From Promethearchaeum syntrophicum (GTDB lineage Archaea; Asgardarchaeota; Lokiarchaeia; Sigyniarchaeales; Promethearchaeaceae): a stretch of 32,000 bases of DNA. Within the stretch, counting starts at the first letter, position 1; every line of letters starts with the position of its first letter. A program made the position numbers and the translations under genes. The stretch spans positions 1,710,001-1,742,000 of the forward strand of contig NZ_CP042905.2 in assembly GCF_008000775.2 (NCBI RefSeq). The letters are read 5' to 3'. Of the stretch, positions 12,168 through 31,810 are shown piece by piece. The notes beneath the pieces are model-generated. The model was not told the DNA's origin and did no database searches. It worked only from the letters and a program-made list of their open reading frames with translations.

Positions 12168-14293
12168 GTTTATACATAGAATTTAAAAAAGCAAAAAGCG
12201 ATTTGTTTTTTAAGAAAGATTTATATCAAAAAATATTTCGGATTTTTGAAGGGAAGGGGGGTGATCAGATAATTACAGATCAGATCTTGCCAAAAGGTAC
12301 TCATATTCAAGATCTTCTTATTTTAAATTCAGATATGAAAAGAGCTCGTGATTCTATCTTGATGAAAATCCAAGAATTGGTTAAAAATGACATTAAATTT
12401 TCTGAGAATTTATTCTATTTTTCTCAATACGGTGGGAGTAAAACCCAATTTTTGAACCTAGTTAAGAGTATTATCTGGCAGCACTCCCCGAATTGTATTC
12501 CAATTCTATTAGAGGATATTAGCCAAATTAAGGTAAGAGCCATATTTGAGAAAATGATAGGGCAATTATTAAAACGAATATCTATTATCCCCAAATTTGA
12601 AGAAAATACACAATTATATGATGAATTTTTATCAGAACTAAACAAGCTAATAAGCCGAGTACATATTGCATTTAACCAATCAAAAAATCTTGGGGATGCT
12701 CATGAAATCATAAACAAATTAATGAACATTAAAAATCCAGTAGCGAAAGACCAACTCAGGAAACTAAATGACATCTTACATTCAACTATAATGGTAGATA
12801 AAATTGATATCTTAAATGAAATTGTCTTGTTAATGAAGTTTTGTAGTAAGTATGATTTGATATTCTTATTCATGTTTGATGAAATGGATTTATGGCTTAA
12901 ATCTACATCAGATCACCCTGAACTAAGTCAGAAATTTCGGGATCAACATAAATTTATGAAAAAAATCTTAGACATTCCTAAAAGTCAAGTAAAAATATTT
13001 TTCCTTTTTGCTTGTACCGATCGAGTAAATCGGCTCCTATTTTCGCAAGACCAATTATTTATAAATTCTTCTCCTGCAGCAAGTCGGTTAAATCAAATAT
13101 ATGTGTCCGCGGAAAAAATAATGGAAGCGGGGTGTTATGGATCTGAGATTAAGCAAGCTTTGGTCAAGATCGCCATATATTACTTAGCAAATAATGAAAA
13201 AAAAGATTTTTCTGAACAGTTTTTTACGCAAGTCGCTCCGATTTTAGAGAAAAAGTATCAATCTTATTCTCGAAGAACCAGTAATTCTAGAATTATTCGA
13301 ATGCTTGAAAGTTATCAGTTTTTAGTCAACCCTTTAACTTATGGAATGAAACACTGGGAAAATAATGTAAAGCTTTATGGAGATCTCATTGAAGAACATC
13401 TCGATAAAATACTAAAAAGAATTCATATTAAATTTGTTAGAAAGGAAATATTAGTCGATCCTTCTAAAATCTACTCAAAAGACAGATTAGATGGATATTT
13501 TGTTATTTATGGTGCTGATAGACATGAAGTCAAAACGTATGTAGAAATCAAATTAACTAAGAAATTCGAAGGAAAAAAAGCATCTCAGTTCCTACAATGG
13601 TTAAGCTTAAATCTTGAGAAAAAAATCGTATTGATAGTTTTTAGTCCAACTCCAAAAAGTGAGATCTTAAAACAAATTTCGTTGTATGCAGATTCTCAAG
13701 GGTATCCTCAAGATTTTATAAAAAGGATTGAATTGATTCATATTGAAAATCCTTATGCGTTTGCTCCAATTAATTATTTATCAGATAAATCGTTAGATTC
13801 AGATCAAATTTTAAATTTTTATAACCTATTTGCATTCTGGTTAGATTTTATTGGAGATTTTTCCCATAAATTTCAACAAGTTATTGATAATATTGGTTTT
13901 GGAGTTTTTCCTCCTGAAACACATATTGGAGGTAATTCAGAAGCTTCAGGAATCGAAGATGATGGGCCTCCTCCTGATGATTTTACTTTGGAAGAAAAAA
14001 TTAGTTTGAATTTGATGTTGAATTTATATTTAGAAAAAGCATTTACTCCGTCAGGAAAAATGGGCAAAGCAAAAATTGAAAAAATCATCTCCCAAAAAGC
14101 TTTAGGCATCTCGGATTTGGAAAAATCTTTAGAAAATATGAGAGAAGGAAATTTACTCCTTAGAATAACTGACAAACAAGTGCAATTTGATAAAGATTTA
14201 ATACATATCAATGATTTGGACAATTTTAAAAAAAAAATTCGCTCTGTGTTGACGAATTCAAAAAATACTCAAGGGATCAATTCTTTTTTTTAA
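12164..14293 (+). CDS. P-loop ATPase with deviant Walker A, ~145-aa insert before Walker B, C-terminal winged-helix-like region
   Basis: Walker A-like QYGGSKTQ (12431-12445). Walker B LIFLFMFDEMD (D at 12878). ATG 12164 overlaps the upstream stop (ATGA), and GGAGG (12151-12155) lies 8 nt upstream. The ORF-track start 12149 is a GTG. The C-terminal region GKMGKAKIEKIISQKALGISDLEKSLENMREGNLLLRI looks like a winged helix. Confidence 0.8.
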   Translation: MSLYIEFKKAKSDLFFKKDLYQKIFRIFEGKGGDQIITDQILPKGTHIQDLLILNSDMKRARDSILMKIQELVKNDIKFSENLFYFSQYGGSKTQFLNLVKSIIWQHSPNCIPILLEDISQIKVRAIFEKMIGQLLKRISIIPKFEENTQLYDEFLSELNKLISRVHIAFNQSKNLGDAHEIINKLMNIKNPVAKDQLRKLNDILHSTIMVDKIDILNEIVLLMKFCSKYDLIFLFMFDEMDLWLKSTSDHPELSQKFRDQHKFMKKILDIPKSQVKIFFLFACTDRVNRLLFSQDQLFINSSPAASRLNQIYVSAEKIMEAGCYGSEIKQALVKIAIYYLANNEKKDFSEQFFTQVAPILEKKYQSYSRRTSNSRIIRMLESYQFLVNPLTYGMKHWENNVKLYGDLIEEHLDKILKRIHIKFVRKEILVDPSKIYSKDRLDGYFVIYGADRHEVKTYVEIKLTKKFEGKKASQFLQWLSLNLEKKIVLIVFSPTPKSEILKQISLYADSQGYPQDFIKRIELIHIENPYAFAPINYLSDKSLDSDQILNFYNLFAFWLDFIGDFSHKFQQVIDNIGFGVFPPETHIGGNSEASGIEDDGPPPDDFTLEEKISLNLMLNLYLEKAFTPSGKMGKAKIEKIISQKALGISDLEKSLENMREGNLLLRITDKQVQFDKDLIHINDLDNFKKKIRSVLTNSKNTQGINSFF

Positions 14294-14725: not shown

Positions 14726-15454
14726 TCAAAAAATATTTTCGAGTAATTCTTGATTCATTTTTAGGAATTTATGCCCAAATCCTTTTAATTCTGCCAACCT
14801 CCCCGATATGCCTTTTGGATTTCCTGTTTTCGTATAGGTTATGGTTGTTTCTGTTATGGCTTGGAGAACGTTGTAAGGGGTTTTGAAATGATCGAGCAAA
14901 ATTCTTGCCTTTTTTTCACTTACCTGACACAAGCCTTCCAAGAAAAATAACTGCGAATCCCTCGAAATTTTTTCTTGTTCTATTTTAATAGGGACATATT
15001 CAAAGGGGGCGGATTTTTGCACGAATTTGGCAAAGCTCCAGATGGTTTCTGCAGTTTCTCTGGCATCCCGTGTAGGAAAGAGAGGGATCTTCATTTTGTA
15101 AATGGCATATAGCATCGCCCCGTAGATACTCGCTTCGTACACCCCTTTTCTCTCAAACATCTTGGTAGGATTTTCCAGAATGATCAAGGGTTTGGTGTAA
15201 TGTTTTTTGAGGTGTTGCAGTTGGGAAAAAAACCGATTATCACAAATTGACGCTACCAGATCATCGCCTCGCTTACGTTCAATCGCAATATCGTTGGAAA
15301 TCACATAATCCGCAATATCGAGCGTTTCTATTTGCAGGTGGCAGGGAATAGTTTCAAACACTGCACGGATTTCATTCCTTTCTCGCTCATCCATGATGAT
15401 TAGGGGGTTACATTTCGAGGTAGAGAGTGGTTGGGTTTTGGATGTGGATTGCAT
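14726..15454 (-). CDS. xpf: Short archaeal XPF/ERCC4-family structure-specific endonuclease with (HhH)2 and C-terminal PIP-like box
   Basis: ERCC4 signature IADYVISNDIAIERKRGDDLVASI..R...Q. HhH elements LEGLCQVSEKKARILLDHF and LAELKGFGHKF. The extreme C-terminus is QELLENIF (Qxx[L]xx[I][F]). I prefer ATG 15454 (A/T box 15474-15485) over the ORF-track start 15562. Confidence 0.9.
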   Translation of the reverse strand: MQSTSKTQPLSTSKCNPLIIMDERERNEIRAVFETIPCHLQIETLDIADYVISNDIAIERKRGDDLVASICDNRFFSQLQHLKKHYTKPLIILENPTKMFERKGVYEASIYGAMLYAIYKMKIPLFPTRDARETAETIWSFAKFVQKSAPFEYVPIKIEQEKISRDSQLFFLEGLCQVSEKKARILLDHFKTPYNVLQAITETTITYTKTGNPKGISGRLAELKGFGHKFLKMNQELLENIF

Positions 15455-15551
15455 ATTATTCTTTTTTGGGAATCTATTTAATAGCACATTTTTTCCACGA
15501 TTTTTTGAATGCGACTTTATATAGTCCAATTTTCTTACTTTTTTGATTATT

Positions 15552-15959
15552 ATGATTAACACCTACCCAATTGAAAAAATCAGCAAAATCCGTATGTCGT
15601 CCCTCGAAATTTTCCACAGTCAAACCGAATCAGAACGATGGGATCGCCACATTCACGCCATGATGGAAACCGTGAAACGCACAGAGAATCCGTATGTCTT
15701 AGCCTTCACTTTAAAATTTGCCGCGCGGTTTTATTTCAAACAACACCAATTTGAGACAGCGATAAAACTTGTGAAAAAAGTCTTGCTTATTTATCCTGCC
15801 AATCATCGCCTCCGAAAATCAACCATGTTCGATCTGTACAGGTATCAAATGGTGGATGCCCGTGAAAAAGGGGATGATCTTACTGCGGAAGCATTACGAA
15901 GCAAATTAAAGGAAATGGAAGGCGATCTTAGGGATGATAGTGGATTTATTTCAAAATAA
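15552..15959 (+). CDS. Small helical hypothetical protein (TPR-like helix pair)
   Basis: 135 aa from the first ATG; the ORF-track start 15543 is TTG. The helical-repeat-like stretch is YVLAFTLKFAARFYFKQHQFETAIKLVKKVLLIYP. It is divergent from xpf. Confidence 0.55.
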   Translation: MINTYPIEKISKIRMSSLEIFHSQTESERWDRHIHAMMETVKRTENPYVLAFTLKFAARFYFKQHQFETAIKLVKKVLLIYPANHRLRKSTMFDLYRYQMVDAREKGDDLTAEALRSKLKEMEGDLRDDSGFISK

Positions 15960-19349: not shown

Positions 19350-19841
19350 ATGTACACACGAAATATTGTTTTTAGATATGCTTTATTTAATTTCGCAGAT
19401 GGGTTTAAATTTCACCCTGAAATGAAGGTATTTAACCAAAGTTACAAACAGACTTTGGGAGCTGATGTGTATAAAACGAAATTTCAAATCGAAAATAACG
19501 AAATCAAGGTTTTAATTTGGGATATAGAACCATTTGAGCGGTTTAAACATTTACGGTCAACTTATTATAAGGATGTTTCAGGAATATTGATCCTTTCATC
19601 ATTATCCCATCGTACTGATATTGATAAAATTAAAAATCTAATCCATGAAATTATTTGGGACCATGGAGTATTACCAATCTTAATTTTTAAAACAAAAAAT
19701 CCCGCTCTATCATCTGATGAATTGAATTACAAAGAATTAGAATTCGATTCAATATCCATTTTTAAAATTGAAGGGGATTCTCAAGAATTTATTGAAAAAC
19801 AAATAAAAAAGTCCGTTGAAAAATTACTCCAAGATCTGTAG
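19350..19841 (+). CDS. Rab-like pseudo-GTPase (intact ORF, catalytic motifs lost)
   Basis: TLGADVYKTKFQIENNEIKVLIWDIEPFERFKHLRSTYYKDVSGILIL is collinear with Rab TIGvDF...IWDTAGQERF...YYRga.G. There is no P-loop, G3 is DIEPFE instead of DTAGQE, and G4 is FKTKNP instead of NKxD. Confidence 0.7.
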   Translation: MYTRNIVFRYALFNFADGFKFHPEMKVFNQSYKQTLGADVYKTKFQIENNEIKVLIWDIEPFERFKHLRSTYYKDVSGILILSSLSHRTDIDKIKNLIHEIIWDHGVLPILIFKTKNPALSSDELNYKELEFDSISIFKIEGDSQEFIEKQIKKSVEKLLQDL

Positions 19842-19848
19842 ATTCCAA

Positions 19849-20424
19849 CTAATTTTCCCTCAGATTGAAAAATTTTTTGATTATTGGGGGGAGACGTTTG
19901 GAAAAATCATAAGTCTTAAAATTAAATTCGGTATTATAAATAATCTTCTTGTATTTATGTAAGGAGAGCATGTGGTCATTTAAATTCTTAGCATAAGGCT
20001 GTTTTTCGGTAATTTTATTTTCCTTTATTCTCCTGAGATCAGGCGTAATCCAAATTCGATAGACAAAAAATTTCTTCAGAATTTCGTTTAATCCCTTATT
20101 GATCCCTGAGGATTCCACAATACCAATCGGCATATTCTTTTCTTTGAGATTTTGATAAAATTGTGTAAAGGCATAATCCAAAGCGGATTGAAATTGGAGA
20201 TAGGAGGCAGGATTATTATGGAGATCTTGCGGAGTAAAATTGTTGGTCTGGTAAATGTCCTTAATATCGAAAATCGGGAGATTGGGAAAATATTTTTGGA
20301 TGAAGGTGGATTTCCCTGCGCCCACTAGCCCGATAACATGAATAATGGGGATCTCCGACTTTTTTCGGGGCGAGGTTGGGATTGGCGGATCCCACGTCTG
20401 AAGGTATTTGGAGTCCATTTGCAT
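19849..20424 (-). CDS. Small P-loop NTPase/kinase-like protein
   Basis: Walker A IHVIGLVGAGKSTFI. 191 aa. Same strand as the helicase and 127 nt downstream of it. The substrate is unknown. Confidence 0.7.
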   Translation of the reverse strand: MQMDSKYLQTWDPPIPTSPRKKSEIPIIHVIGLVGAGKSTFIQKYFPNLPIFDIKDIYQTNNFTPQDLHNNPASYLQFQSALDYAFTQFYQNLKEKNMPIGIVESSGINKGLNEILKKFFVYRIWITPDLRRIKENKITEKQPYAKNLNDHMLSLHKYKKIIYNTEFNFKTYDFSKRLPPIIKKFFNLREN

Positions 20425-20551
20425 AATTAGATAATGAAAAAAAGAGTATTTAATGCTTGAATCCCTTGTAATTTTTTAGATCGATTTGAATAAAAAAAAA
20501 ACTAAACAAAAAATCACTATACATTTTAAATTTCCTTGATATTCTGAAAAG

Positions 20552-23074
20552 TTAGGTATACTCCAAAAGCGATTTTTGAGACCCGCGAATACTTTCGCTT
20601 TTTCCACTCAACATTTTGCCCGATCGATCCAAGGAAATGCCTGTCTTTTTATGGATTTCAATCGGCGTTGAGTGAAACACCGATTCGGATGATTCATATC
20701 CATTATTAAATAGAATGCGAGCCTGATTTCGGGACACATTCAGATTTTCCATTAAATCCAATAATTCTTCTTTTATCCCGTTTTTAATCCGAACCGACAG
20801 GATACTCAGGATTTTAGCGAATGTGACCTTTTTTCCATTTCGGACTACCTTTTTTTGCATAAATCTGGTGATCGTTTCAAAAGTCGACGCCACCCGCGCC
20901 ATTTCATTCGTCAGCCCAAAGATATCTCCTGCCCCAAACTTGGGAAACACCTCTAAAATATGCTGAAACGTATGTTCGGAAATCCACAATTTAAGAATCT
21001 CTAATTGGGTATCTAAATTGTGTTTGGAGGATTTAAACGAATTAAAAAATAACAAATTTTCTAAAATGAATTCGTCGGTAGAAAACGCATACGATTCCAC
21101 AAGATGTTTAATATTGACCAGATGTTCAGGATAAACATAAAGACTCACGGCTAACGATCCGAAATCTGAAAGTAAATATCGGTCGGCATGGGGAACTTTC
21201 TTAATCAAGCCCTCCCGAAGGAGAAAATCGAACACATACTGATGATTACAGATTAAGGGGATAAGAGATTTGATAACTTTCTGGGCATTGTGTTTTTTCA
21301 TATCTTTTGGGTGATCCTCGGAAAACAGTGCGTTGATAAAAAAAGTGAGATGCGGGCAGAGTTTCTTGTAGAATTTATTATCGTTTTTAATGTCAAATTT
21401 ATATTTCTTTGCTGGATTACATGAGCAAAAAAACCCTTCGGCTAAGTTTATACGGCAATAATACTCCCCAGAATTGCGGAACACCGACCCTTCAATCCTA
21501 TTTGAGTGAACTTTGGAAATTTGGCACGTCACGGGAACCGTGTTTGGAAAGGCACTCCCATAACTCTGCAAAAAAAACCCTAGGTTCATTCGTTGGATAA
21601 AAAAATGTTGAAATAAATCCTCGTAGACAGAGCTTTTCTGTAGACAGAAGGCAAAAAAAGTCCGCTTAAGAAATTTTTCAATCTCAGCCATGGATATTTC
21701 GGGATTTTCAGCGACCAAAAGTAAAATAAATTCCTGAAGAGCATTAGTATCTCCCAATTTAGAAATAAGTTCTGAATATCTTGGTTGGAGAATCTCATTT
21801 TCGAATTTGAAATACTCCCCTAATACAAATTCATATTCCTCTTCGCTTCGAATTAATATGTAACCGATTCCTTCAGTATCCAATCCAAACCTTCCCGCTC
21901 TTCCCAGCATTTGAAAGAGGATATTTGCCGAATGAACTTTCATTATTCCTTTTTCGGTATACGATAAGCGCATTTCGGGATTTTTGTAGTTTTTTTCTGT
22001 GAGATTAATCATTTTTCTGTACTGGAGAATATCACTTACGATTACCACTCTTGCGGGGGTATTAATCCCAGCTGCCAAAGTGGTAGTCGCCACCAAGACT
22101 TTAATAACGCGTTGTCTGTACAGATCCTCGATTAAATGTCTATCTTCGCTACTTAACGCTGCATTATGATAGGCAATCCCGTATCCTATAATGTCAGACA
22201 GCCCTTTAGCTAAGGTTTTTCTTCGGAGGAGGTTTTTTCGCGCGGTCTCACATTTTCTTATTTCTGCGGGATCCAAATATTTATTCACGGTTTTTTTTAA
22301 TTCTTGACTAAAACTGACACAATCTTTCCGCCGATTAACAAACACCAGCACTTGCCCGTTTCCTTCTAACGTTTTAATAATGATCTCTCGAATTTTCGGG
22401 ATTTTCGATTCGTACAGTTCCAGTGTATAACTCAGCGGAACCGGTCGGGAATACGAATGAAGAAGAATAAATTTTTTTCCAAAAGTTTCTAACCATTCGT
22501 GGAACTGCTCATAATTTCCGATGGTGGCACTGAGTGCAATAAACTGCAAAAATTTAATTTTGGTGAGGAGTTTCATCACCACGTTTTCAAGTCTTGGACC
22601 ACGCTGCGAAGCCCCGATCTCATGAATTTCATCGACAATTGCTACCCTCACTCGGGCAAACAATGGATTATTTTGCCTTAGTAACGCATCACATTTTTCA
22701 AAGGTAGTAATCACAAGATCGGCCTCGGCGAGGTCTTGAATCTCCGCATCAGTATCGCCCGTCGTAACACTGACTTTCAAATTATAGGGGTGTAATGTGT
22801 TGGTAAAATATCCCGCTTTTTCATGGGCAAGAGCTTTATACGGGACCAGATAGATCGCCTTTCCGAGATTCTTGAGCAAAATGTTTAGGATGGCCATCAC
22901 TCCAATGAGAGTTTTTCCACTTCCTGAGGGAGTACACACCAAAAAATTCTGATGGAAAAATAATCCTTTCTTTACGGCTTCTATTTGAATGGGGTTAAGG
23001 GCTGTAATATTTTGTTTTTTTAATATTTGTATAATCATGGCATAATCTAAAACTGAATCTACAGAAGTATTCAC
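20552..23074 (-). CDS. Ski2/Hel308(HELQ)-like SF2 helicase with embedded SWIM-type zinc finger
   Basis: Motif Q/I LNPIQ..CTPSGSGKT, II VDEIHEI, III LSATIGN, V VATTTLAAGINTPA, VI QMLGRAGRFGLD. The C-terminal helix-hairpin-helix-like region is NVSRNQARILFNNGYES. CSC-x20-CPH lies at aa 550-575 (about 21350-21427). GTG start 23074 overlaps the upstream TGA (GTGA), and GGAGG lies 7 nt upstream (23082-23086, minus). Confidence 0.9.
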   Translation of the reverse strand: MNTSVDSVLDYAMIIQILKKQNITALNPIQIEAVKKGLFFHQNFLVCTPSGSGKTLIGVMAILNILLKNLGKAIYLVPYKALAHEKAGYFTNTLHPYNLKVSVTTGDTDAEIQDLAEADLVITTFEKCDALLRQNNPLFARVRVAIVDEIHEIGASQRGPRLENVVMKLLTKIKFLQFIALSATIGNYEQFHEWLETFGKKFILLHSYSRPVPLSYTLELYESKIPKIREIIIKTLEGNGQVLVFVNRRKDCVSFSQELKKTVNKYLDPAEIRKCETARKNLLRRKTLAKGLSDIIGYGIAYHNAALSSEDRHLIEDLYRQRVIKVLVATTTLAAGINTPARVVIVSDILQYRKMINLTEKNYKNPEMRLSYTEKGIMKVHSANILFQMLGRAGRFGLDTEGIGYILIRSEEEYEFVLGEYFKFENEILQPRYSELISKLGDTNALQEFILLLVAENPEISMAEIEKFLKRTFFAFCLQKSSVYEDLFQHFFIQRMNLGFFLQSYGSAFPNTVPVTCQISKVHSNRIEGSVFRNSGEYYCRINLAEGFFCSCNPAKKYKFDIKNDNKFYKKLCPHLTFFINALFSEDHPKDMKKHNAQKVIKSLIPLICNHQYVFDFLLREGLIKKVPHADRYLLSDFGSLAVSLYVYPEHLVNIKHLVESYAFSTDEFILENLLFFNSFKSSKHNLDTQLEILKLWISEHTFQHILEVFPKFGAGDIFGLTNEMARVASTFETITRFMQKKVVRNGKKVTFAKILSILSVRIKNGIKEELLDLMENLNVSRNQARILFNNGYESSESVFHSTPIEIHKKTGISLDRSGKMLSGKSESIRGSQKSLLEYT

Positions 23075-23868
23075 AAAGAATCCTCCAGTAAAATCGTTAC
23101 TTTTCCATCTTTCAAAAGATATCGATATGTTTGACGAATGTTTGTTTCGGATACTAAGTGATTTTGTTTTTCTTTGGTAAATGTAAATGAAAGCGTAAGA
23201 AAATTATCATATTGAAAAGATTTGTCCTTAACTCCTTTGGGTGTCTGGTGGAGATATATCCACATTCCCGCAATACTCATCATAAGATCGAAATAATAGG
23301 GAATATTGGTATTATAGCCAGGATGGTAGGTCACGTGATGAGATAAAATCACAAATAAGTGTTTATCAACCACCAAGTCGATCAAAGCAGGTACAATTTT
23401 TTCCGAGATATATTTTAGAGCTTTCATGTTGTCATAATAATCCATTCCATTTCCCAATTCTCTTTTCAGAATGTTTGAAATCGAATCGATTATTACGATA
23501 TCGTTTGATTCCAAAGGATACACATCTTGTTGTAATAGGTTTAATGTTGCGGTGATTTTGGTAAAATTTTGGGAATTATTGACAAATATCCTGTTCTGAT
23601 GGATACTCGAAAATTCATGCATATAATTCCGTATAGAAAATTTTTGCTCCGAATCAATAATAAAATACCTCCGGGAAGATTTCCTAATGTCGTATCGTAT
23701 GAATTCCTTGATGATGGTGGATTTTCCCGAGAGATTCGGACCTGCCAGATGAAGAAATCTATTTTTGGGCGAAAAATATCTGCCGATGAGGGAAAAAAAA
23801 TCACTTGTAATATCTTCCCTATGTTTTTTTGGAATTGTGTTTAGATTTGATGTAGGAGTAAACGACAT
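23071..23868 (-). CDS. RecA-fold ATPase, RadB/Rad51-paralogue-like
   Basis: Walker A LAGPNLSGKST (23716-23742), followed by YFIIDSEQKFS (compare the Rad51/RadA vvYIDTE..F strand). Walker B is DIVIIDSISNIL. It has no N-terminal HhH domain. Its stop overlaps the helicase start. Confidence 0.75.
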   Translation of the reverse strand: MSFTPTSNLNTIPKKHREDITSDFFSLIGRYFSPKNRFLHLAGPNLSGKSTIIKEFIRYDIRKSSRRYFIIDSEQKFSIRNYMHEFSSIHQNRIFVNNSQNFTKITATLNLLQQDVYPLESNDIVIIDSISNILKRELGNGMDYYDNMKALKYISEKIVPALIDLVVDKHLFVILSHHVTYHPGYNTNIPYYFDLMMSIAGMWIYLHQTPKGVKDKSFQYDNFLTLSFTFTKEKQNHLVSETNIRQTYRYLLKDGKVTILLEDSL

Positions 23869-23883
23869 TTTTTATCATATGAT

Positions 23884-24300
23884 TTATTCGATTTCTGAGG
23901 CGCGGTATAATAATGGGTGTTCCTCTTTTACTGGCGATGAAGATACAGTGGGGTGAAATTTTCTATGATGTATGATTTCTGGAACTATTACCTCTTCGTT
24001 TTTCGATTCTTTTAGAGGAATAGATAAAAATTCGATTGTGGTTTCTAACAAGGCAGTTTTTTCCAGATTATCCTGTAATATATCATTTGCAACTAGGTGG
24101 GATTCTTTTTTGAGATAATATTGGGTAAAATGTGCTATATTTTCCTCGATTTTCTGGAGAAATTCCACGTAATGCTGTTTGAATGTGTTTACATCTATCT
24201 TTTTGGCTTCGAGATCTTTGATATGCTGTTTCCAGAGATCGAGATCACCATAAATAATTTTCTGGATTTCTTTCCTTAATTTACCATTGACCGAGCTCAT
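23884..24300 (-). CDS. Small helical/coiled-coil hypothetical protein, first gene of the helicase operon
   Basis: 138 aa with a charged heptad-like sequence. It ends 15 nt upstream of the RecA-fold ATPase gene on the same strand. Confidence 0.6.
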   Translation of the reverse strand: MSSVNGKLRKEIQKIIYGDLDLWKQHIKDLEAKKIDVNTFKQHYVEFLQKIEENIAHFTQYYLKKESHLVANDILQDNLEKTALLETTIEFLSIPLKESKNEEVIVPEIIHHRKFHPTVSSSPVKEEHPLLYRASEIE

Positions 24301-24699: not shown

Positions 24700-25188
24700 A
24701 TGGATAATTCAAAAATTTACCTTGATGAGCTTATGTTGTTGAAAAATATTCTGGATAATAAACAAGGAATCTCAACCCCAAAATTATATTTGGGAAAGAT
24801 CCTAAGAAACAAAAATACCTTGTATAAAAAAATAGAGAAATTGCGAAATTACGGGTTGATTACCTCATTTCGAACCAAAGCCATTCCTCCCATTTCCAAA
24901 CATAAAATTACAGAAACAGGCATTGCCCTTCTTGAAAATTTTACCACGCAATTTTATCCTGAACAGCATGTATTAGAAAAAAAGAAACACAAAAATCCCC
25001 CAAAAACAATCGTCGAATATAAAGAATGTAGGAAACTGGAACCTGATGAATTAGCGGAGCTTTCCCAATCGGTGGTCTATTATTTAGCGGAGGCTCTGGA
25101 AAAAGAAATCGAAGATATATCCAAAAAAAAAGCACTCAAACTCACAAATATTGCCGAGAAAATCATAAAAAAAGTCAGAAATTATTAA
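24700..25188 (+). CDS. Winged-helix (MarR/ArsR-like) DNA-binding protein, putative regulator
   Basis: ISTPKLYLGKILRNKNTLYKKIEKLRNYGLITSF...ITETGIALLENF has an HTH + wing pattern. It has its own A/T box (24667-24680) ~27 nt upstream of the ATG. Confidence 0.6.
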   Translation: MDNSKIYLDELMLLKNILDNKQGISTPKLYLGKILRNKNTLYKKIEKLRNYGLITSFRTKAIPPISKHKITETGIALLENFTTQFYPEQHVLEKKKHKNPPKTIVEYKECRKLEPDELAELSQSVVYYLAEALEKEIEDISKKKALKLTNIAEKIIKKVRNY

Positions 25189-25206: not shown

Positions 25207-26283
25207 TTACAGCGATTCCAACGGATCACTGAGTTCAGCGGATTTACTGACGACCGCTTTCTTTTTGGAGGATTTCTTTTTTTTCGGAGACTTTTTTTTT
25301 GCAGGGGGGGTTGCTTTTTCTTCATCAAAAAGATATTCCACTTTTTCCGAATCCGAAATCCCCGCCTCCGTGATGAAAAAGGATGCAACTTCAGGAGGTA
25401 AATCAGGAGCATCCACAATAATTGCGGATCGTTCCAGACTCGTATTCGCCGAAAATCCTTTGGTCTTGAATTGAATGCGAAAATGACACCCGTGGGCCAC
25501 AATATTCCCTCCAATCGCATCGTTGGCACTATAAGTCCCCTTCATGAATGTAGCCACTTGGTTTGTCAGTAAAACCGCTACATTATGCGTTTCTGCAATT
25601 CGGGAAAGTTCGTGAATCATTTTGTTTAACACTTGTTGACGCGCCGCCAACATCCCAATCCCCACGTATTCCGACCGCATTAACGCCATCAAGGAATCAA
25701 CCACGATAAGACGGGCGTTTTTATCAATACACGCTTGTTCGGCAGCCCGAATCATTTGGAATTGATGATCGGTCGAATAAATCCTGGCATGGTAGATATT
25801 CCCTAGAATTTTTTGGGGATTAAATCCAAATCTTCGGGCGATTCGTTCGATTTTACTCTTGGAGAATGTGTTTTCCGTATCGATGTATAACACTGCTCCA
25901 TCCAATCCGCCCTCATTAATCGGCATTTGGCATGTGACGGCTAATGTATGAGCGAGATTGGTTTTTCCGCTTTTGAAGGCTCCAAACACTTCAGTGAGAC
26001 GACCGGTAGATACGCCCCCATTTAAGATCTCATCGAAATTCTTGCTTCCTGTGGTCAAAAAATCGTAATTCTCTACGATCTCGGACACTTGTTTGAACGA
26101 GGACATTCCCATGACATCCCGAGCATCCCAGATGAGTTTCTTTGAGGCTTTCCCGCTGATCCCCTCGATTTCTTCAAGGTCACCCGGAACACTCATGGAT
26201 AAGGCTTTGATATCGGTGATCCCGTTTTCTTGGAGGAGTTTGATCTGGCGGGGTTTGATGGAAGATAATTCTGCTAATTCCAT
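25207..26283 (-). CDS. radA: RadA recombinase with extra Lys-rich C-terminal tail
   Basis: N-terminal HhH domain (IKLLQENGITDIKALSM..LEEIEGISGKASKKL). Walker A GAFKSGKT. Also VLYIDTENTFSKSKIERIA, Walker B LIVVDSLMAL, and NQV...GGNIVAHGCHFRIQFK. I prefer ATG 26283 (MELAEL), which has TTTATAAA at 26305-26312. The ORF-track start is 26328. Confidence 0.92.
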   Translation of the reverse strand: MELAELSSIKPRQIKLLQENGITDIKALSMSVPGDLEEIEGISGKASKKLIWDARDVMGMSSFKQVSEIVENYDFLTTGSKNFDEILNGGVSTGRLTEVFGAFKSGKTNLAHTLAVTCQMPINEGGLDGAVLYIDTENTFSKSKIERIARRFGFNPQKILGNIYHARIYSTDHQFQMIRAAEQACIDKNARLIVVDSLMALMRSEYVGIGMLAARQQVLNKMIHELSRIAETHNVAVLLTNQVATFMKGTYSANDAIGGNIVAHGCHFRIQFKTKGFSANTSLERSAIIVDAPDLPPEVASFFITEAGISDSEKVEYLFDEEKATPPAKKKSPKKKKSSKKKAVVSKSAELSDPLESL

Positions 26284-26304
26284 GGAGGGGTTACTGGATA
26301 GTGA

Positions 26305-26312
26305 TTTATAAA
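26305..26312 (-). promoter_or_regulatory. TATA box of radA
   Basis: TTTATAAA lies 22-29 nt upstream of ATG 26283 and implies a leaderless mRNA. Confidence 0.45.
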
Positions 26313-26391
26313 GCCGAAATAAAAACATTTTTAGAATTCAAAAATTTTGAGGGCTCTTTTTTTTTATATGCTTCTACCAAAAGATAATTTC

Positions 26392-26626: not shown

Positions 26627-26947
26627 TTAATTTTTGTATACCCCCGAATCAATCGGGACTTCGTGGTTGGGTTTTATGGTATCCAAAAAATCCGCATGTG
26701 TGTTTTGGGGGGAGCCTTGAAATTTTTCCAATGTGTCATTAATTTTACCTAAACCCTCCTCGATTGATTTCTTTACATACAATGCATTCCGTCTTCCGCT
26801 TTGAACGATTAATTTATTATAATAGAAGCGACTCTTGCGATACTTGAAATAGATATAAAAAATAATAACGGCTATCCCAAGGAACGGGTTTTTTTGGAAA
26901 ACCAATGCCAGAAGAACGACGGCTAAAATGGTGGTGATGTGCCCCAT
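26627..26947 (-). CDS. Small membrane protein (two N-terminal TM helices)
   Basis: ITTILAVVLLALVF and FLGIAVIIFYIYF are hydrophobic segments. The ATG at 26947 lies 5 nt after the upstream stop and has GGTGA upstream. The ORF-track GTG at 26956 overlaps that stop. Confidence 0.6.
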   Translation of the reverse strand: MGHITTILAVVLLALVFQKNPFLGIAVIIFYIYFKYRKSRFYYNKLIVQSGRRNALYVKKSIEEGLGKINDTLEKFQGSPQNTHADFLDTIKPNHEVPIDSGVYKN

Positions 26948-26952
26948 AATCT

Positions 26953-27738
26953 TCACCCCGTCTCCGCAAAAATATCTACCATTTTCTTCCTTAAAAACCA
27001 GTCTTTAACCCAAATGCCTTCTTTTGAAAGACTCTGGTTCTGATCTATACACGAATTGGGAACCCAGATGCTTATGAGGTCGGCGATATGGAAATTAATG
27101 GCTTTGGCGCGTTCTTCATTGATCGCTCCTGGAAGCAGTTTAAATTCTTCATTGGTTCTTAGGGAATTATACCACTGCTCAGGATCAATTTCGATCTTTT
27201 TTTCTTGAGGGGTTTCATCCAATTCTTCTGGATATTCGGGAATAGGGCTGTTTGACAAATCTTGAATTTCATTCTCTCGTGTATTCTTTTGCTGACCCGG
27301 TTGGGATGTACTTTCTTTAGGGGAGCCGATTTTAGAGGGCATCTTTGAACCGGTGGCATGAATGATTTTCTCGTGGTAAATATGATCCAACAAATCGGTA
27401 AACAATTCAGATTCAGGAAATTTGAGCTGTTTGGCATATCCCGAAATGATAAACGAAATTATGTTATTCTTATTTTCAACGGTGATGGAGGTGATCTCTT
27501 CTCCGAATTTATGGACGGTCGACCATTTAGTATTTTGCGTTCGAAAAATCCGTAAAATGGCGATCATTTCCAGGAGATTTAGTTTGATGTTTTTCCCTTG
27601 TCCTAATGATGGTTTTTCCCAACTCCCATCTGGTTTTTTTTTTAGAAATCGCAGATAGAGGCACGGTTGGTCAATTTCGGCAGAATCGAGGAGTAACCCT
27701 GTTTTTTGCCCGAAGAACGAATAGTTATGATGGTTCAT
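26953..27738 (-). CDS. Hypothetical protein; N-terminal half possibly a Whirly/PUR-alpha-like beta4-alpha repeat nucleic-acid-binding fold
   Basis: 261 aa. Two consecutive beta-beta-beta-beta-alpha-like segments (TGLLLDS..CLYLRFLKK..W..KNIKLNLLEMIAILRIF and WSTVHKF..ITSITVEN..IISFIISG..KFPESELFTDLLDHIY), then an acidic/Pro linker and a C-terminal domain. TATA at 27760-27768. The fold call is inference only. Confidence 0.65.
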   Translation of the reverse strand: MNHHNYSFFGQKTGLLLDSAEIDQPCLYLRFLKKKPDGSWEKPSLGQGKNIKLNLLEMIAILRIFRTQNTKWSTVHKFGEEITSITVENKNNIISFIISGYAKQLKFPESELFTDLLDHIYHEKIIHATGSKMPSKIGSPKESTSQPGQQKNTRENEIQDLSNSPIPEYPEELDETPQEKKIEIDPEQWYNSLRTNEEFKLLPGAINEERAKAINFHIADLISIWVPNSCIDQNQSLSKEGIWVKDWFLRKKMVDIFAETG

Positions 27739-29826: not shown

Positions 29827-31086
29827 ATGGGAGTAAAATTAAAAAAACTTATAGAATCTTCGTTTATTCCTCTAACGGAAATCAAAGGAACCAAAGTTGC
29901 GGTGGATGGGATGAACATGCTTTTTCAAATTCTTTATAATCCTTACCAAATGGCACAAAAACTCCCCGATATTTTCTACATGGATTCCACCCAGCGCGTA
30001 ATTACTCACCTCTATGGATGGTTGCAAAAGATCACCCAATTCTATAAAGCCAATATCTTTCCTGTGATTGTGTTTGATGGTAAACCCGATCCTTACAAAC
30101 GACTCACAACCAAAGATTATGCTCGGGATTATTTGGCGGTAAAAAAAAAATATGAGAACGCAATTGAAAAAGGAGACTCTCAAAGGGCAAAAAAATTCGC
30201 CTTATCCAAATCGTTCATGTTCCTAAATTGCATCCACGAATCCAAACTACTGCTCGAAATGTGTGGAATTCCTGTCATAATGGCCCCCTCCGAAGCCGAA
30301 GCCCAATGTGTGTCCCTCCAAAAAGAAGGGTTGGTCGAGTATGTGGTATCCACTGATTTTGATGTCATGTTGTACGGATCCCCACAAATTATCCGAAAAA
30401 TTACCTTTCAAAGCCGAAAAAAAATCCAAGGCAAGTGGGTATCCTATCAACCTAATATTGAACTGATTGAGACCTTTGCGAATTTGGATCGCATGGAAAT
30501 TACCCTTAAGCAGTTGGTTGACCTAAGTATTTTGGTGGGTAATGATTATTATCCAGGAGTCAAAAAAATCGGTCCATCGAAAGCCCTGCAGTCCATTAAG
30601 TATTTTAAGACTCTGGAGCGGATCATGCACAAACACCCGCATTTATTTTCCAATCTTTCACTCCAAAAAATTCACCGCATCCGGGAAATGTTTCAAAATC
30701 CCGAAGTTATCCGAAAACCCAAAATAACCCCTCACCCACTTAATCTGGATGGATTAAGAAAATTAATGACCGATGATCATTCATTAAATTCAGAACGAGT
30801 AGAAAAAAGGTTAACAACTTTAGAAAAAAGGCACACAAAGATGGCCAAGAAGTGGGATTTCGAATTGGAAAAACTCATTTATGAAAGAGATAATAACACC
30901 AATAAATTCCTGCAAAGACAGTTGGATCGCGCCAAAAAGAAGATTCCCGATAGATTTACTCCGAAATTAGAATTTATATCAGCCATCAATTACAAAAAAT
31001 CAAAAACCAAATCAAAACGAAAGCCACGAGTCCAACAAAAAATATATCATAAAAAATTAATTTTGAAACACAAAAAGGAGGTATAA
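29827..31086 (+). CDS. fen: FEN-1 flap endonuclease (XPG/Rad2 family) with long Lys-rich C-terminal extension
   Basis: XPG-N MGVKLKKLI...KVAVDGMNMLFQ, VFDGKPDPYK. XPG-I GIPVIMAPSEAEAQCVSL...VVSTDFDVMLYGSP. H3TH LVGNDYYPGVKKIGPSKAL. It is 419 aa versus about 330-350 aa for typical archaeal FEN-1. Confidence 0.92.
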   Translation: MGVKLKKLIESSFIPLTEIKGTKVAVDGMNMLFQILYNPYQMAQKLPDIFYMDSTQRVITHLYGWLQKITQFYKANIFPVIVFDGKPDPYKRLTTKDYARDYLAVKKKYENAIEKGDSQRAKKFALSKSFMFLNCIHESKLLLEMCGIPVIMAPSEAEAQCVSLQKEGLVEYVVSTDFDVMLYGSPQIIRKITFQSRKKIQGKWVSYQPNIELIETFANLDRMEITLKQLVDLSILVGNDYYPGVKKIGPSKALQSIKYFKTLERIMHKHPHLFSNLSLQKIHRIREMFQNPEVIRKPKITPHPLNLDGLRKLMTDDHSLNSERVEKRLTTLEKRHTKMAKKWDFELEKLIYERDNNTNKFLQRQLDRAKKKIPDRFTPKLEFISAINYKKSKTKSKRKPRVQQKIYHKKLILKHKKEV

Positions 31087-31498: not shown

Positions 31499-31810
31499 AT
31501 GGAATCCACTTTACGATCCCAAACCGTCCCTATCAACCCGCGTGAAATTAAAAAACATTCCGTTCTTTCTCAGAAATGCCCCATTTGTAAGCAAGAAATA
31601 TCATTTGGCGTCGAACACGGGTTTTTAGAGAAAGTCGAACGATATCCTTATCCTCATGTGATTTTACATGGGGATCCGCTTCATGCACTTATAGTCTATA
31701 TTGATGCGGATTTTCTGATTCGGGGGGCGGACACGGCGCGAAGTATTGAAATTCACCGCAATAGCAATACTTTTTCGCAGATCATTAAGAAGTGGAGTAA
31801 TCCATATTAA
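31499..31810 (+). CDS. Small hypothetical protein with CxxC motif
   Basis: 103 aa containing CPICKQ and His-rich YPYPHVILHGDPLH. attataaata lies ~24 nt upstream of the ATG. Confidence 0.6.
   Translation: MESTLRSQTVPINPREIKKHSVLSQKCPICKQEISFGVEHGFLEKVERYPYPHVILHGDPLHALIVYIDADFLIRGADTARSIEIHRNSNTFSQIIKKWSNPY

Follow-up and report, generated by a model that had tools for sequence, protein, structure and literature searches.

In a 32,000-nucleotide (nt) stretch of contig NZ_CP042905.2 from Promethearchaeum syntrophicum MK-D1 (Promethearchaeaceae, Lokiarchaeia), the first Asgard archaeon in culture, three adjacent genes beside radA encode a small helical protein, a divergent RadB-like ATPase and a Hel308/Hjm-type helicase. 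The whole stretch is referred to below as the window, and positions follow its numbering. We favor, with moderate confidence, the interpretation that the three genes, which lie in a cluster of repair genes, form an operon of the Promethearchaeaceae whose products act together with RadA as a recombination-regulating module. Regulation of homologous recombination is an ancient role of the Hel308/HELQ helicases as well as of the Rad51/RadA paralogues. Among the Asgard archaea, of all archaea the nearest to eukaryotes, a Hel308-type helicase and a RadA paralogue are genomically tied and, in one family, translationally coupled.

Organization of the three-gene unit

All three genes are on the (−) strand. 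The first, at 23884–24300, encodes a small all-helical protein of 138 amino acids (aa; QEE16308, 'hypothetical' in GenBank). It is followed after 15 nt by the gene for the divergent RadB-like ATPase, at 23071–23868 (265 aa; QEE16307, 'ATP-binding protein' in GenBank), and then by the gene for the superfamily 2 (SF2) helicase of the Hel308/Hjm type, at 20552–23074 (840 aa; QEE16306), which comprises the five Hel308 domains and an insertion. The ATPase and helicase genes meet at a coupling junction (23071–23086, (−) strand). Specifically, a Shine-Dalgarno-like GGAGG sequence at 23082–23086 is separated by a 7-nt spacer from the helicase start codon GTG at 23072–23074, which overlaps the ATPase stop codon TGA at 23071–23073. 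The GTG start is credible, because the 12 residues that it adds (xxSVDSVLDYxMI) are conserved in homologues and because GenBank uses the same start and gives an identical 840-aa product. Within the 127-nt spacer after the helicase stop codon lies a T-rich tract (20481–20520, (−) strand; ...gattttttgtttagttttttttttattc...), which is a possible archaeal oligo-T terminator closing the unit.

The radA gene is located 906 nt upstream of the unit on the same strand, at 25207–26328 (Pfam Rad51, E = 8.4e-74; NCBIfam RadA, 304.5 bits, above its cut-off of 259), and its RefSeq product now begins at M16 and has 358 aa. Between radA and the unit, a 162-aa open reading frame (ORF) with only weak winged-helix-like matches runs in the opposite direction (24700–25188, (+) strand). 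Because this opposite-strand ORF intervenes, radA is probably transcribed apart from the three-gene unit in P. syntrophicum. The ORF is not found at that position in two related loci (L001 and L002; see below for the locus set), and it is present in a second genomic copy of the region (QEE17762). An earlier interpretation of the window, made from its letters without database searches (the sequence-only reading), had reported the span of the genes, the 15-nt gap, the GTGA overlap, the GGAGG sequence 7 nt upstream, the 127-nt spacer, the ATPase motifs and a same-strand radA within 1 kb; all of these are present on the (−) strand, while the 162-aa ORF is an additional feature absent from that account.

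The helicase is a complete Hel308-type enzyme with an insertion

The motor of the 840-aa protein is plainly Ski2-like (Pfam DEAD, E = 3.7e-29; Helicase_C, E = 6.6e-11). The cut-offs of the NCBIfam Hel308 equivalog models are not reached (347 bits against 887, 305 against 1200, 302 against 1216 and 271 against 891), and the best-scoring stretch in each of these models is N-terminal (residues 5–494). In a search of PDB sequences with the profile of the helicase family, Pyrococcus furiosus Hjm (2zj2) came first, with an E-value of 3.6e-139 and a score of 469 bits, and ASCC3 (457 bits) and Brr2 (431 bits) scored nearly as high. In particular, the match to Hjm covers RecA1, RecA2 and the winged helix (profile positions 6–493), the start of domain 4 (616–667), and domains 4 and 5 (690–829).

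The AlphaFold2 (AF2) model of the helicase has a predicted local distance difference test (pLDDT) score of 86.5 and a predicted template modeling (pTM) score of 0.81. In Foldseek it comes closest to Hjm and to Hel308 of Sso and Afu (2zj8, 2va8 and 2p6r), with target-normalized template modeling (TM) scores of 0.76–0.80, and the next are the POLQ helicase and Brr2. RecA1, RecA2, the winged helix, the ratchet domain (domain 4) and the helix-hairpin-helix (HhH) domain (domain 5) are all recovered by both profile and fold. On the basis of the PDB profile regions and the fold matches, the protein is assigned as a complete five-domain Hel308-type helicase with an insertion, and the Ski2/Hel308 label given to it by the sequence-only reading holds over the full length.

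A defensive role was weighed in view of PADLOC matches, which assign HamB to the helicase core (best E = 1.2e-38, residues 16–196) and give a weak mad8 match for the ATPase (1.3e-5), as would be expected of a Hachiman-like antiviral system composed of a helicase and an ATPase. The PADLOC matches, however, cover only the generic Ski2-like motor, which argues against a defense function. Furthermore, PADLOC identified no HamA (DUF1837) or other defense partner in the four flanking proteins scanned, and the sampled Asgard lineages keep the helicase in a stable chromosomal setting next to radA, unlike the patchy occurrence of defense islands. We consider this explanation highly improbable.

The insertion carries a conserved SWIM-like finger

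The insertion, of ~120 residues (~495–615; 21230–21592, (−) strand), lies between the winged-helix and ratchet domains. Profile positions 494–615 have no counterpart in Hjm, and the gap falls exactly between Hjm residues 455 and 457. The insertion is predicted to form two short helices, a four-stranded β-sheet and a helix; in the AF2 model, the strands span residues 516–523, 526–533, 536–543 and 547–550 and the last helix spans residues 574–583, with a block-mean pLDDT of 75–91 over residues 491–620.

The insertion contains a SWIM-like signature, C550-S-C552 … C573-P-H575 (21350–21427, (−) strand), that is invariant in 29 of 29 aligned homologues. In the model, the CxC pair is positioned at the end of strand 4 and the CxH pair at the start of helix 574–583, with a block-mean pLDDT of 75–90 over residues 531–590, an arrangement that fits the β-β-α layout of SWIM domains, in which the Cys pair ends a β-hairpin and the Cys-His pair opens a helix. 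The CxC…CxH signature is present in 82 of 84 Asgard helicases from GTDB species genomes, the exceptions being L065, which is cut by a contig end, and L079; characterized Hel308 enzymes lack this zinc-finger-like insertion. The spacer between the two pairs is 8–11 residues in Odin, Baldr, Borr, Jord, Freya, some Thor and Hermod sequences, giving a classical-looking CxCxnCxH motif (e.g. CTCSYHKREGKKLCRH), and at least 20 residues in the Loki, Hod and Thor forms, ~10 longer than in the short form.

The Pfam SWIM model (PF04434) gave no match on full-length helicases; of 18 excised inserts, four gave matches (10.6, 10.3, 10.1 and 9.2 bits), short of the gathering score of 19.6, and inserts with long and short spacers alike stay below threshold. 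A search with the insertion alone against 5.8 billion proteins returned five short fragments and no new context. We use the term 'SWIM-like' because the signature and the predicted layout fit and the curated Pfam threshold is unmet, and we regard the four residues as a putative zinc site.

The ATPase is best described as a divergent RadB

The 265-aa ATPase carries a Walker A motif, GPNLSGKST (residues 43–51; 23716–23742, (−) strand), a Walker B region, IVIIDSIS (residues 124–131; 23476–23499, (−) strand), and the segment YFIIDSEQKFS, of which IDSE (residues 71–74) aligns with IDTE of RadA. The Walker A motif, the Walker B aspartate and the glutamate of IDSE are all intact. An exhaustive profile search among 1.84 billion cluster representatives yielded a family of only 48 relatives, of ~230–300 aa each. 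In an alignment of 42 members G48 and S131 are invariant and K49 is kept in at least 90% of members, and the family is characterized by the motifs GxxGxGK[ST], [IV]D[ST]ExKFS, hhhhDSxS and ILxH[HEQ]V[ST].

Comparison of the family alignment with RadA by hhalign gave a probability of 96.7% and an E-value of 3.5e-10; the 149 aligned columns run from Walker A to the NQV strand. Residues 32–180 of the ATPase are placed on columns 102–259 of the RadA core, with IDSEQKFS paired with IDTENTFS and HHV paired with NQV. Consistent with this alignment, RadA ORFs are matched by the family hidden Markov model (HMM) at 1e-12 to 1e-15, and some family members join RadA in single-linkage clustering of BLAST matches. 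The 265-aa ATPase consists of a RecA core only, as RadB does, and lacks the N-terminal HhH domain of RadA. The NCBIfam RadB model (TIGR02237) matches 27 of the 42 members, with a best E-value of 3.5e-20 and all scores below the 172.4-bit cut-off, and the scores form a gradient from Jord (130 bits) through Odin (103), Hermod (96), L018 (64) and Loki-type members (~27–31) to the Promethearchaeaceae, which have none. This gradient indicates that the family is a fast-evolving RadB lineage with the window protein at its far end.

For the window ATPase itself, curated libraries return only sub-threshold matches (AAA_14, 4e-5; Elongator Iki1, 1.7e-3; RecA, 0.026), and a search of PDB sequences with the ATPase profile gave chance matches only. 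The AF2 model (pLDDT 64.8, pTM 0.71) has alternating strands and helices consistent with a single RecA-type domain. Foldseek ranks RAD51D, XRCC2 and RAD51C highest for this model, ahead of RecA and RadA; the margins are small (5e-7 to 2e-6 for RAD51D and XRCC2, 3e-6 to 4e-6 for RecA and RadA), with TM scores of 0.4–0.5 for a model of pLDDT 65, and no special affinity to any eukaryotic paralogue was found. By its family profile, the ATPase is a RadA/Rad51-family paralogue, best termed a fast-evolving RadB and the most divergent of a small Asgard RadB-like family. The sequence-only reading had called it Rad51-paralogue-like, which the hhalign result, the HMM matches to RadA and the RAD51D/XRCC2/RAD51C folds bear out.

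These assignments also bear on the idea that the unit encodes a Brr2/ASCC3-type RNA helicase of ribosome or RNA quality control, together with a KaiC/ArlH-like regulator, and has no role in recombination. Such a pair could account for the PDB profile scores of ASCC3 and Brr2, which are near that of Hjm, for the ATPases of L001 and L002, which match ArlH only and weakly, and for the presence of an ASH-Ski2-like RNA helicase as a conserved neighbor in other Asgard lineages. However, the best full-length folds are the DNA helicases Hjm and Hel308, HhH domain 5 included, the ATPase family has ties to RadB and RadA and not to KaiC, and the genes nearby are radA, ERCC4 and FEN1. An RNA-directed pair is therefore improbable in our view.

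Gene order in the Promethearchaeaceae and in other Asgard lineages

Asgard loci (L numbers) were collected by a genome-contig scan with the helicase alignment, so that the set is helicase-centered. The order radA, small protein, RadB-like ATPase, helicase, with gaps of at most ~50 nt, is found in Lokiarchaeum ossiferum (L001/L005) and in metagenomic L002, L086 and L087, and the part from the small protein to the helicase is seen in the Promethearchaeum-like contigs L084 and L085. In L001, L002 and L086 radA stands directly before the small gene, and in L087 one 55-aa opposite-strand ORF lies between them. L004 contains the helicase, with no more than a partial, weak match to the ATPase at the contig edge 0.7 kb upstream, and L088 contains a helicase with no ATPase upstream. 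Homologues of the small protein occur between radA and the RadB-like gene in L001, L002, L084, L085, L086 and L087; the 138-aa protein itself has no Pfam, NCBIfam or PADLOC match, and a PDB profile search returned only generic coiled coils.

The junction is conserved in both Promethearchaeum and Lokiarchaeum. Specifically, the stop and start codons overlap as GTGA in L084, as GGAGG-N7-ATGA in L085 and as ATGATGA in L. ossiferum L001, whereas L002 has a 15-nt gap preceded by GAGGGAG and no overlap. Identity to the window proteins among these relatives ranges from 88% down to 38% for the helicase and falls to 26–29% for the ATPase, and the tight order and the stop/start overlap persist at 38–44% helicase identity and 26–40% ATPase identity.

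This persistence argues against the most serious competing explanation, namely that the genes form an ordinary cluster of independent repair genes, in which the RadB-like protein would work with RadA only, the helicase would be the Hel308 of the lineage, and the array would have arisen by local rearrangement of an old syntenic block. The second genomic copy in P. syntrophicum (radA QEE17759, 162-aa ORF QEE17762, small protein QEE17765, RadB-like ATPase QEE17766 and helicase QEE17768) fits independent genes, since it spans radA through the helicase and so looks like a segmental duplication rather than a duplication specific to the module. As a result of this copy, P. syntrophicum carries two radA genes. 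Between the copies, the helicases are 94.8% identical, the small proteins 90.6% and the ATPases 80.8%, so that the ATPase diverges fastest of the three.

Outside this clade, linkage of the helicase and RadB takes other forms. In Jord/Freya, the helicase, a zinc-ribbon/winged helix-turn-helix protein and RadB lie on one strand with radA 3 kb upstream; in Odin, the order is RadB, a 385-aa protein and the helicase; and in Hermod L083, RadB is convergent with and abuts the helicase, in a same-strand array with radA. The helicase–RadB linkage in these lineages is counted as independent support for a module, and the separate origin of close adjacency in Jord/Freya, Odin and Hermod runs counter to independent genes. 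In Loki-type, Hod, Thor and Hermod loci, whose linkage is counted likewise, a two-transmembrane protein and then RadB lie 4–10 kb downstream of the helicase, with radA directly after RadB in L047. Among the 36 fully flanked loci, the helicase has a RadB-like gene within 10 kb in at least 14; this is a minimum, since several RadB-like genes sit at the 10-kb edge. The large proteins beside RadB in Odin and Hermod were considered as repair partners and ruled out, being Prenyltrans/Big-domain surface proteins.

Several observations weigh against a joint module, and some of them are what independent genes would produce. The association of the three proteins seen here is a genomic one. Across most of the Asgard lineages sampled, distances of 1–10 kb separate the three genes, which lie on different strands or in different arrays, and the intervening genes look unrelated (Prenyltrans/Big-domain surface proteins, the two-transmembrane protein and the ASH-Ski2-like helicase). 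In more than 30 further Asgard loci the homologue of the small protein is encoded on the opposite strand, ~8 kb upstream of the helicase, normally after a ~1290-aa protein without Pfam match, and the helicase is normally preceded in those lineages by a different gene of ~100 aa. Since unrelated genes intervene and the small protein sits in a different array elsewhere, the wider proximity may be, at least in part, inherited synteny. The finger is present with or without an adjacent RadB and is therefore a trait of the helicase family rather than of the operon, and it need not be a RadB interface. In the ATPase family, some relatives have N or H in the place of the Walker B aspartate D128 (e.g. 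IINS in L001), and the window ATPase has no RadB or Rad51 match above any curated threshold (for RadB, TIGR02237/NF006861, none at E ≤ 0.1).

Other genes of the window bear on how the array arose. A 103-aa ORF without Pfam match (31499–31810, (+) strand) has a homologue that, in the majority of other Asgard loci, is the same-strand gene immediately before the helicase (e.g. L047, 9202–9510); in the window the ORF lies 8.5 kb from the helicase on the other strand, as might be expected of a cluster of independent genes. Just upstream of radA are genes for a 109-aa two-transmembrane protein (26627–26956, (−) strand) and a 261-aa protein without Pfam match (26953–27738, (−) strand), and similar genes, for a two-transmembrane protein of ~110–125 aa (a likeness judged by eye) and a protein of ~250 aa, precede the RadB-like gene in Loki-type, Hod, Thor and Hermod loci. 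The order of these two genes, RadB-like gene and radA, as in L047, is probably ancestral. Because the window still holds the presumed ancestral partners (the 261-aa, the 109-aa two-transmembrane and the ~100-aa genes), building the Promethearchaeaceae array from three dispersed genes must have taken several rearrangements and not deletions alone, which favors selection for co-expression and argues against independent genes.

With the points on both sides taken into account, independent repair genes appear distinctly less probable than a recombination-regulating module. The operon described by the sequence-only reading has a tight gene order that is conserved down to 38% helicase identity, while outside this clade the genes are nearby and not in one operon; the SWIM finger that it named is a real and conserved CxC…CxH motif, which is below the Pfam SWIM threshold and not specific to the operon.

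Proposed action of the module with RadA

In the module that we favor, the small protein, the RadB-like ATPase and the helicase would be produced together and would join RadA in acting on single-stranded DNA, at recombination intermediates or where forks have stalled. The RadB-like ATPase may load, stabilize or tune the RadA filament, as analogy with RadB of Haloferax and Pyrococcus suggests (PMC7776575). By analogy with Hel308 and HELQ (PMC13623763), the helicase would move 3′ to 5′ on single-stranded DNA, where its unwinding of lagging strands or D-loops, or its annealing of strands, would limit or channel recombination. The finger insertion, the small protein or both could bring helicase and paralogue into contact or offer a further surface for DNA binding.

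Whether joint action extends to physical association is a further matter. Formation of some stable complex has an appreciable probability but is less likely than not. The fuller proposal, in which the finger-containing Hel308, the RadB-like ATPase, the small protein and RadA make a stable complex with the insertion docking the paralogue, and in which this complex is the direct forerunner of the HELQ–BCDX2 and/or Shu/SWS1 mediators, is quite unlikely, and the ancestry claim in full is much less likely than the formation of some stable complex. The sequence-only reading had suggested such a precursor; that suggestion is unsupported, as we found nothing beyond analogy and no affinity to eukaryotic paralogues or to Shu2/SWS1.

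Relation to known systems

The window ATPase and its family share with RadB of Pyrococcus, Thermococcus and Haloferax a RecA core without further domains, a length of ~230–265 aa, the Walker A and B motifs, ID[ST]E, and DSx[ST] after Walker B; in addition, the Jord, Odin and Hermod members score 96–130 bits on the RadB model, and genes of the family are linked to radA. They differ in that the window protein does not match the RadB model, in that the NQV strand of RadA reads H-[HEQ]-V in the ATPase family, and in that the window gene is coupled to genes for a Hel308-type helicase and a small helical protein. RadB is described as present only in Euryarchaea in a 2020 review (PMC7776575), and a preprint set aside '20 RadB-like hits' from Asgard. 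The window locus exposes annotation gaps, among them an ATPase labeled only 'ATP-binding protein' and a family deemed confined to Euryarchaea.

The helicase has the architecture of Hel308/Hjm (2zj2, 2va8, 2p6r), with RecA1, RecA2, winged-helix, ratchet and HhH domains, and differs in its ~120-residue CxC…CxH insertion, its low NCBIfam scores and its operon with a RadA paralogue. Lokiarchaeota genomes mostly lacked Hel308 in a 2024 survey (13 of 15; PMC10946056); this reported absence may partly reflect the finger-helicase family, which scores far below the model cut-offs.

HELQ has RAD51 and the BCDX2 paralogue complex among its binding partners, and Hel308 keeps recombination in check (PMC13623763); on Asgard archaea, this 2026 review of HELQ/Hel308 notes only that Hel308 exists there. 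The association of HELQ with BCDX2 is a physical one in mammals. The window locus resembles HELQ–BCDX2 in pairing a Hel308-family helicase with a RecA-core Rad51/RadA paralogue in the control of recombination, and the best folds of the ATPase model are RAD51D, XRCC2 and RAD51C. The differences are that the association in the window is a genomic one, that there is one paralogue rather than four, for which no specific orthology to a eukaryotic paralogue was found, and that a zinc finger is not described for HELQ in the same review (PMC13623763).

The window also invites comparison with the Shu complex, from which it differs in that its SWIM-like module is an internal insertion of the helicase, not a stand-alone protein, and is sub-threshold in Pfam; the likeness seen is limited to the motif. 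In the Shu complex, the SWIM protein Shu2/SWS1 acts with Rad51 paralogues, a CxCxnCxH module being associated with a paralogue in recombination. In the open-access literature searched, we found no mention of a zinc finger or SWIM domain in Hel308, or of a RadB–Hel308 operon. RadB and Hel308 are both known kinds of protein; the coupled arrangement with the finger insertion combines them and does not constitute a new category. It provides three or four defined proteins, all from an organism in culture, that are open to complex-formation and RadA assays.

Repair neighbors and other genes

A gene for an ERCC4 (XPF/Mus81-type) nuclease of 278 aa lies ~5 kb downstream of the helicase (14726–15562, (−) strand). 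Its product is 61% identical to the ERCC4 protein of L001, which matches Pfam ERCC4 at 2.1e-20, and an ERCC4 gene is found at most ~5.5 kb downstream of the helicase also in L001, L002 (two copies), L085, L086 and L087. The ERCC4 nuclease may be a further member of the module. A FEN1/XPG-family nuclease gene (29827–31086, (+) strand) is a recurrent neighbor in relatives, where its homologues immediately follow the RadB-like gene in L008 and the helicase gene in L088 and stand two genes past RadB in Jord/Freya loci. L086 also encodes a HIRAN-domain protein (12459–12797, (−) strand) 3 kb downstream of the helicase; the HIRAN domain is linked to DNA damage and to 3′ ends at forks.

The 191-aa P-loop ORF that begins 127 nt past the helicase stop codon (19849–20424, (−) strand) was considered as a component of the unit and set aside. 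It is not conserved outside the genus, and the one BLAST homologue in the subset of loci compared belongs to Promethearchaeum sp. L004, where it is encoded 4 kb away from the helicase gene; UniRef lists the window protein as 'Zeta toxin'.

Most Asgard lineages share a conserved divergent array upstream of the helicase, seen in more than 40 loci (e.g. L076, 1029–9360, (−) strand). It encodes a 231-aa protein with weak caspase-like matches, a ~690-aa HhH-domain protein, 250-aa and 284-aa proteins, the ~1290-aa protein without Pfam match and then the small helical protein.

Elsewhere in the window, an IS110-family transposase gene (1732–3291, (+) strand) is located in a stretch of 44–47% GC, compared with ~30% in the rest, and is surrounded by three ORFs of ~300 aa (90–1073, 3489–4466 and 4624–5517, (+) strand), each ending in a zinc-ribbon domain. 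Two Ras-family small GTPases, of a kind typical of Asgard genomes, are encoded at 6599–7171 and 19350–19841 (both (+) strand); the second matches only profile positions 23–113 and may be without an N-terminal P-loop.

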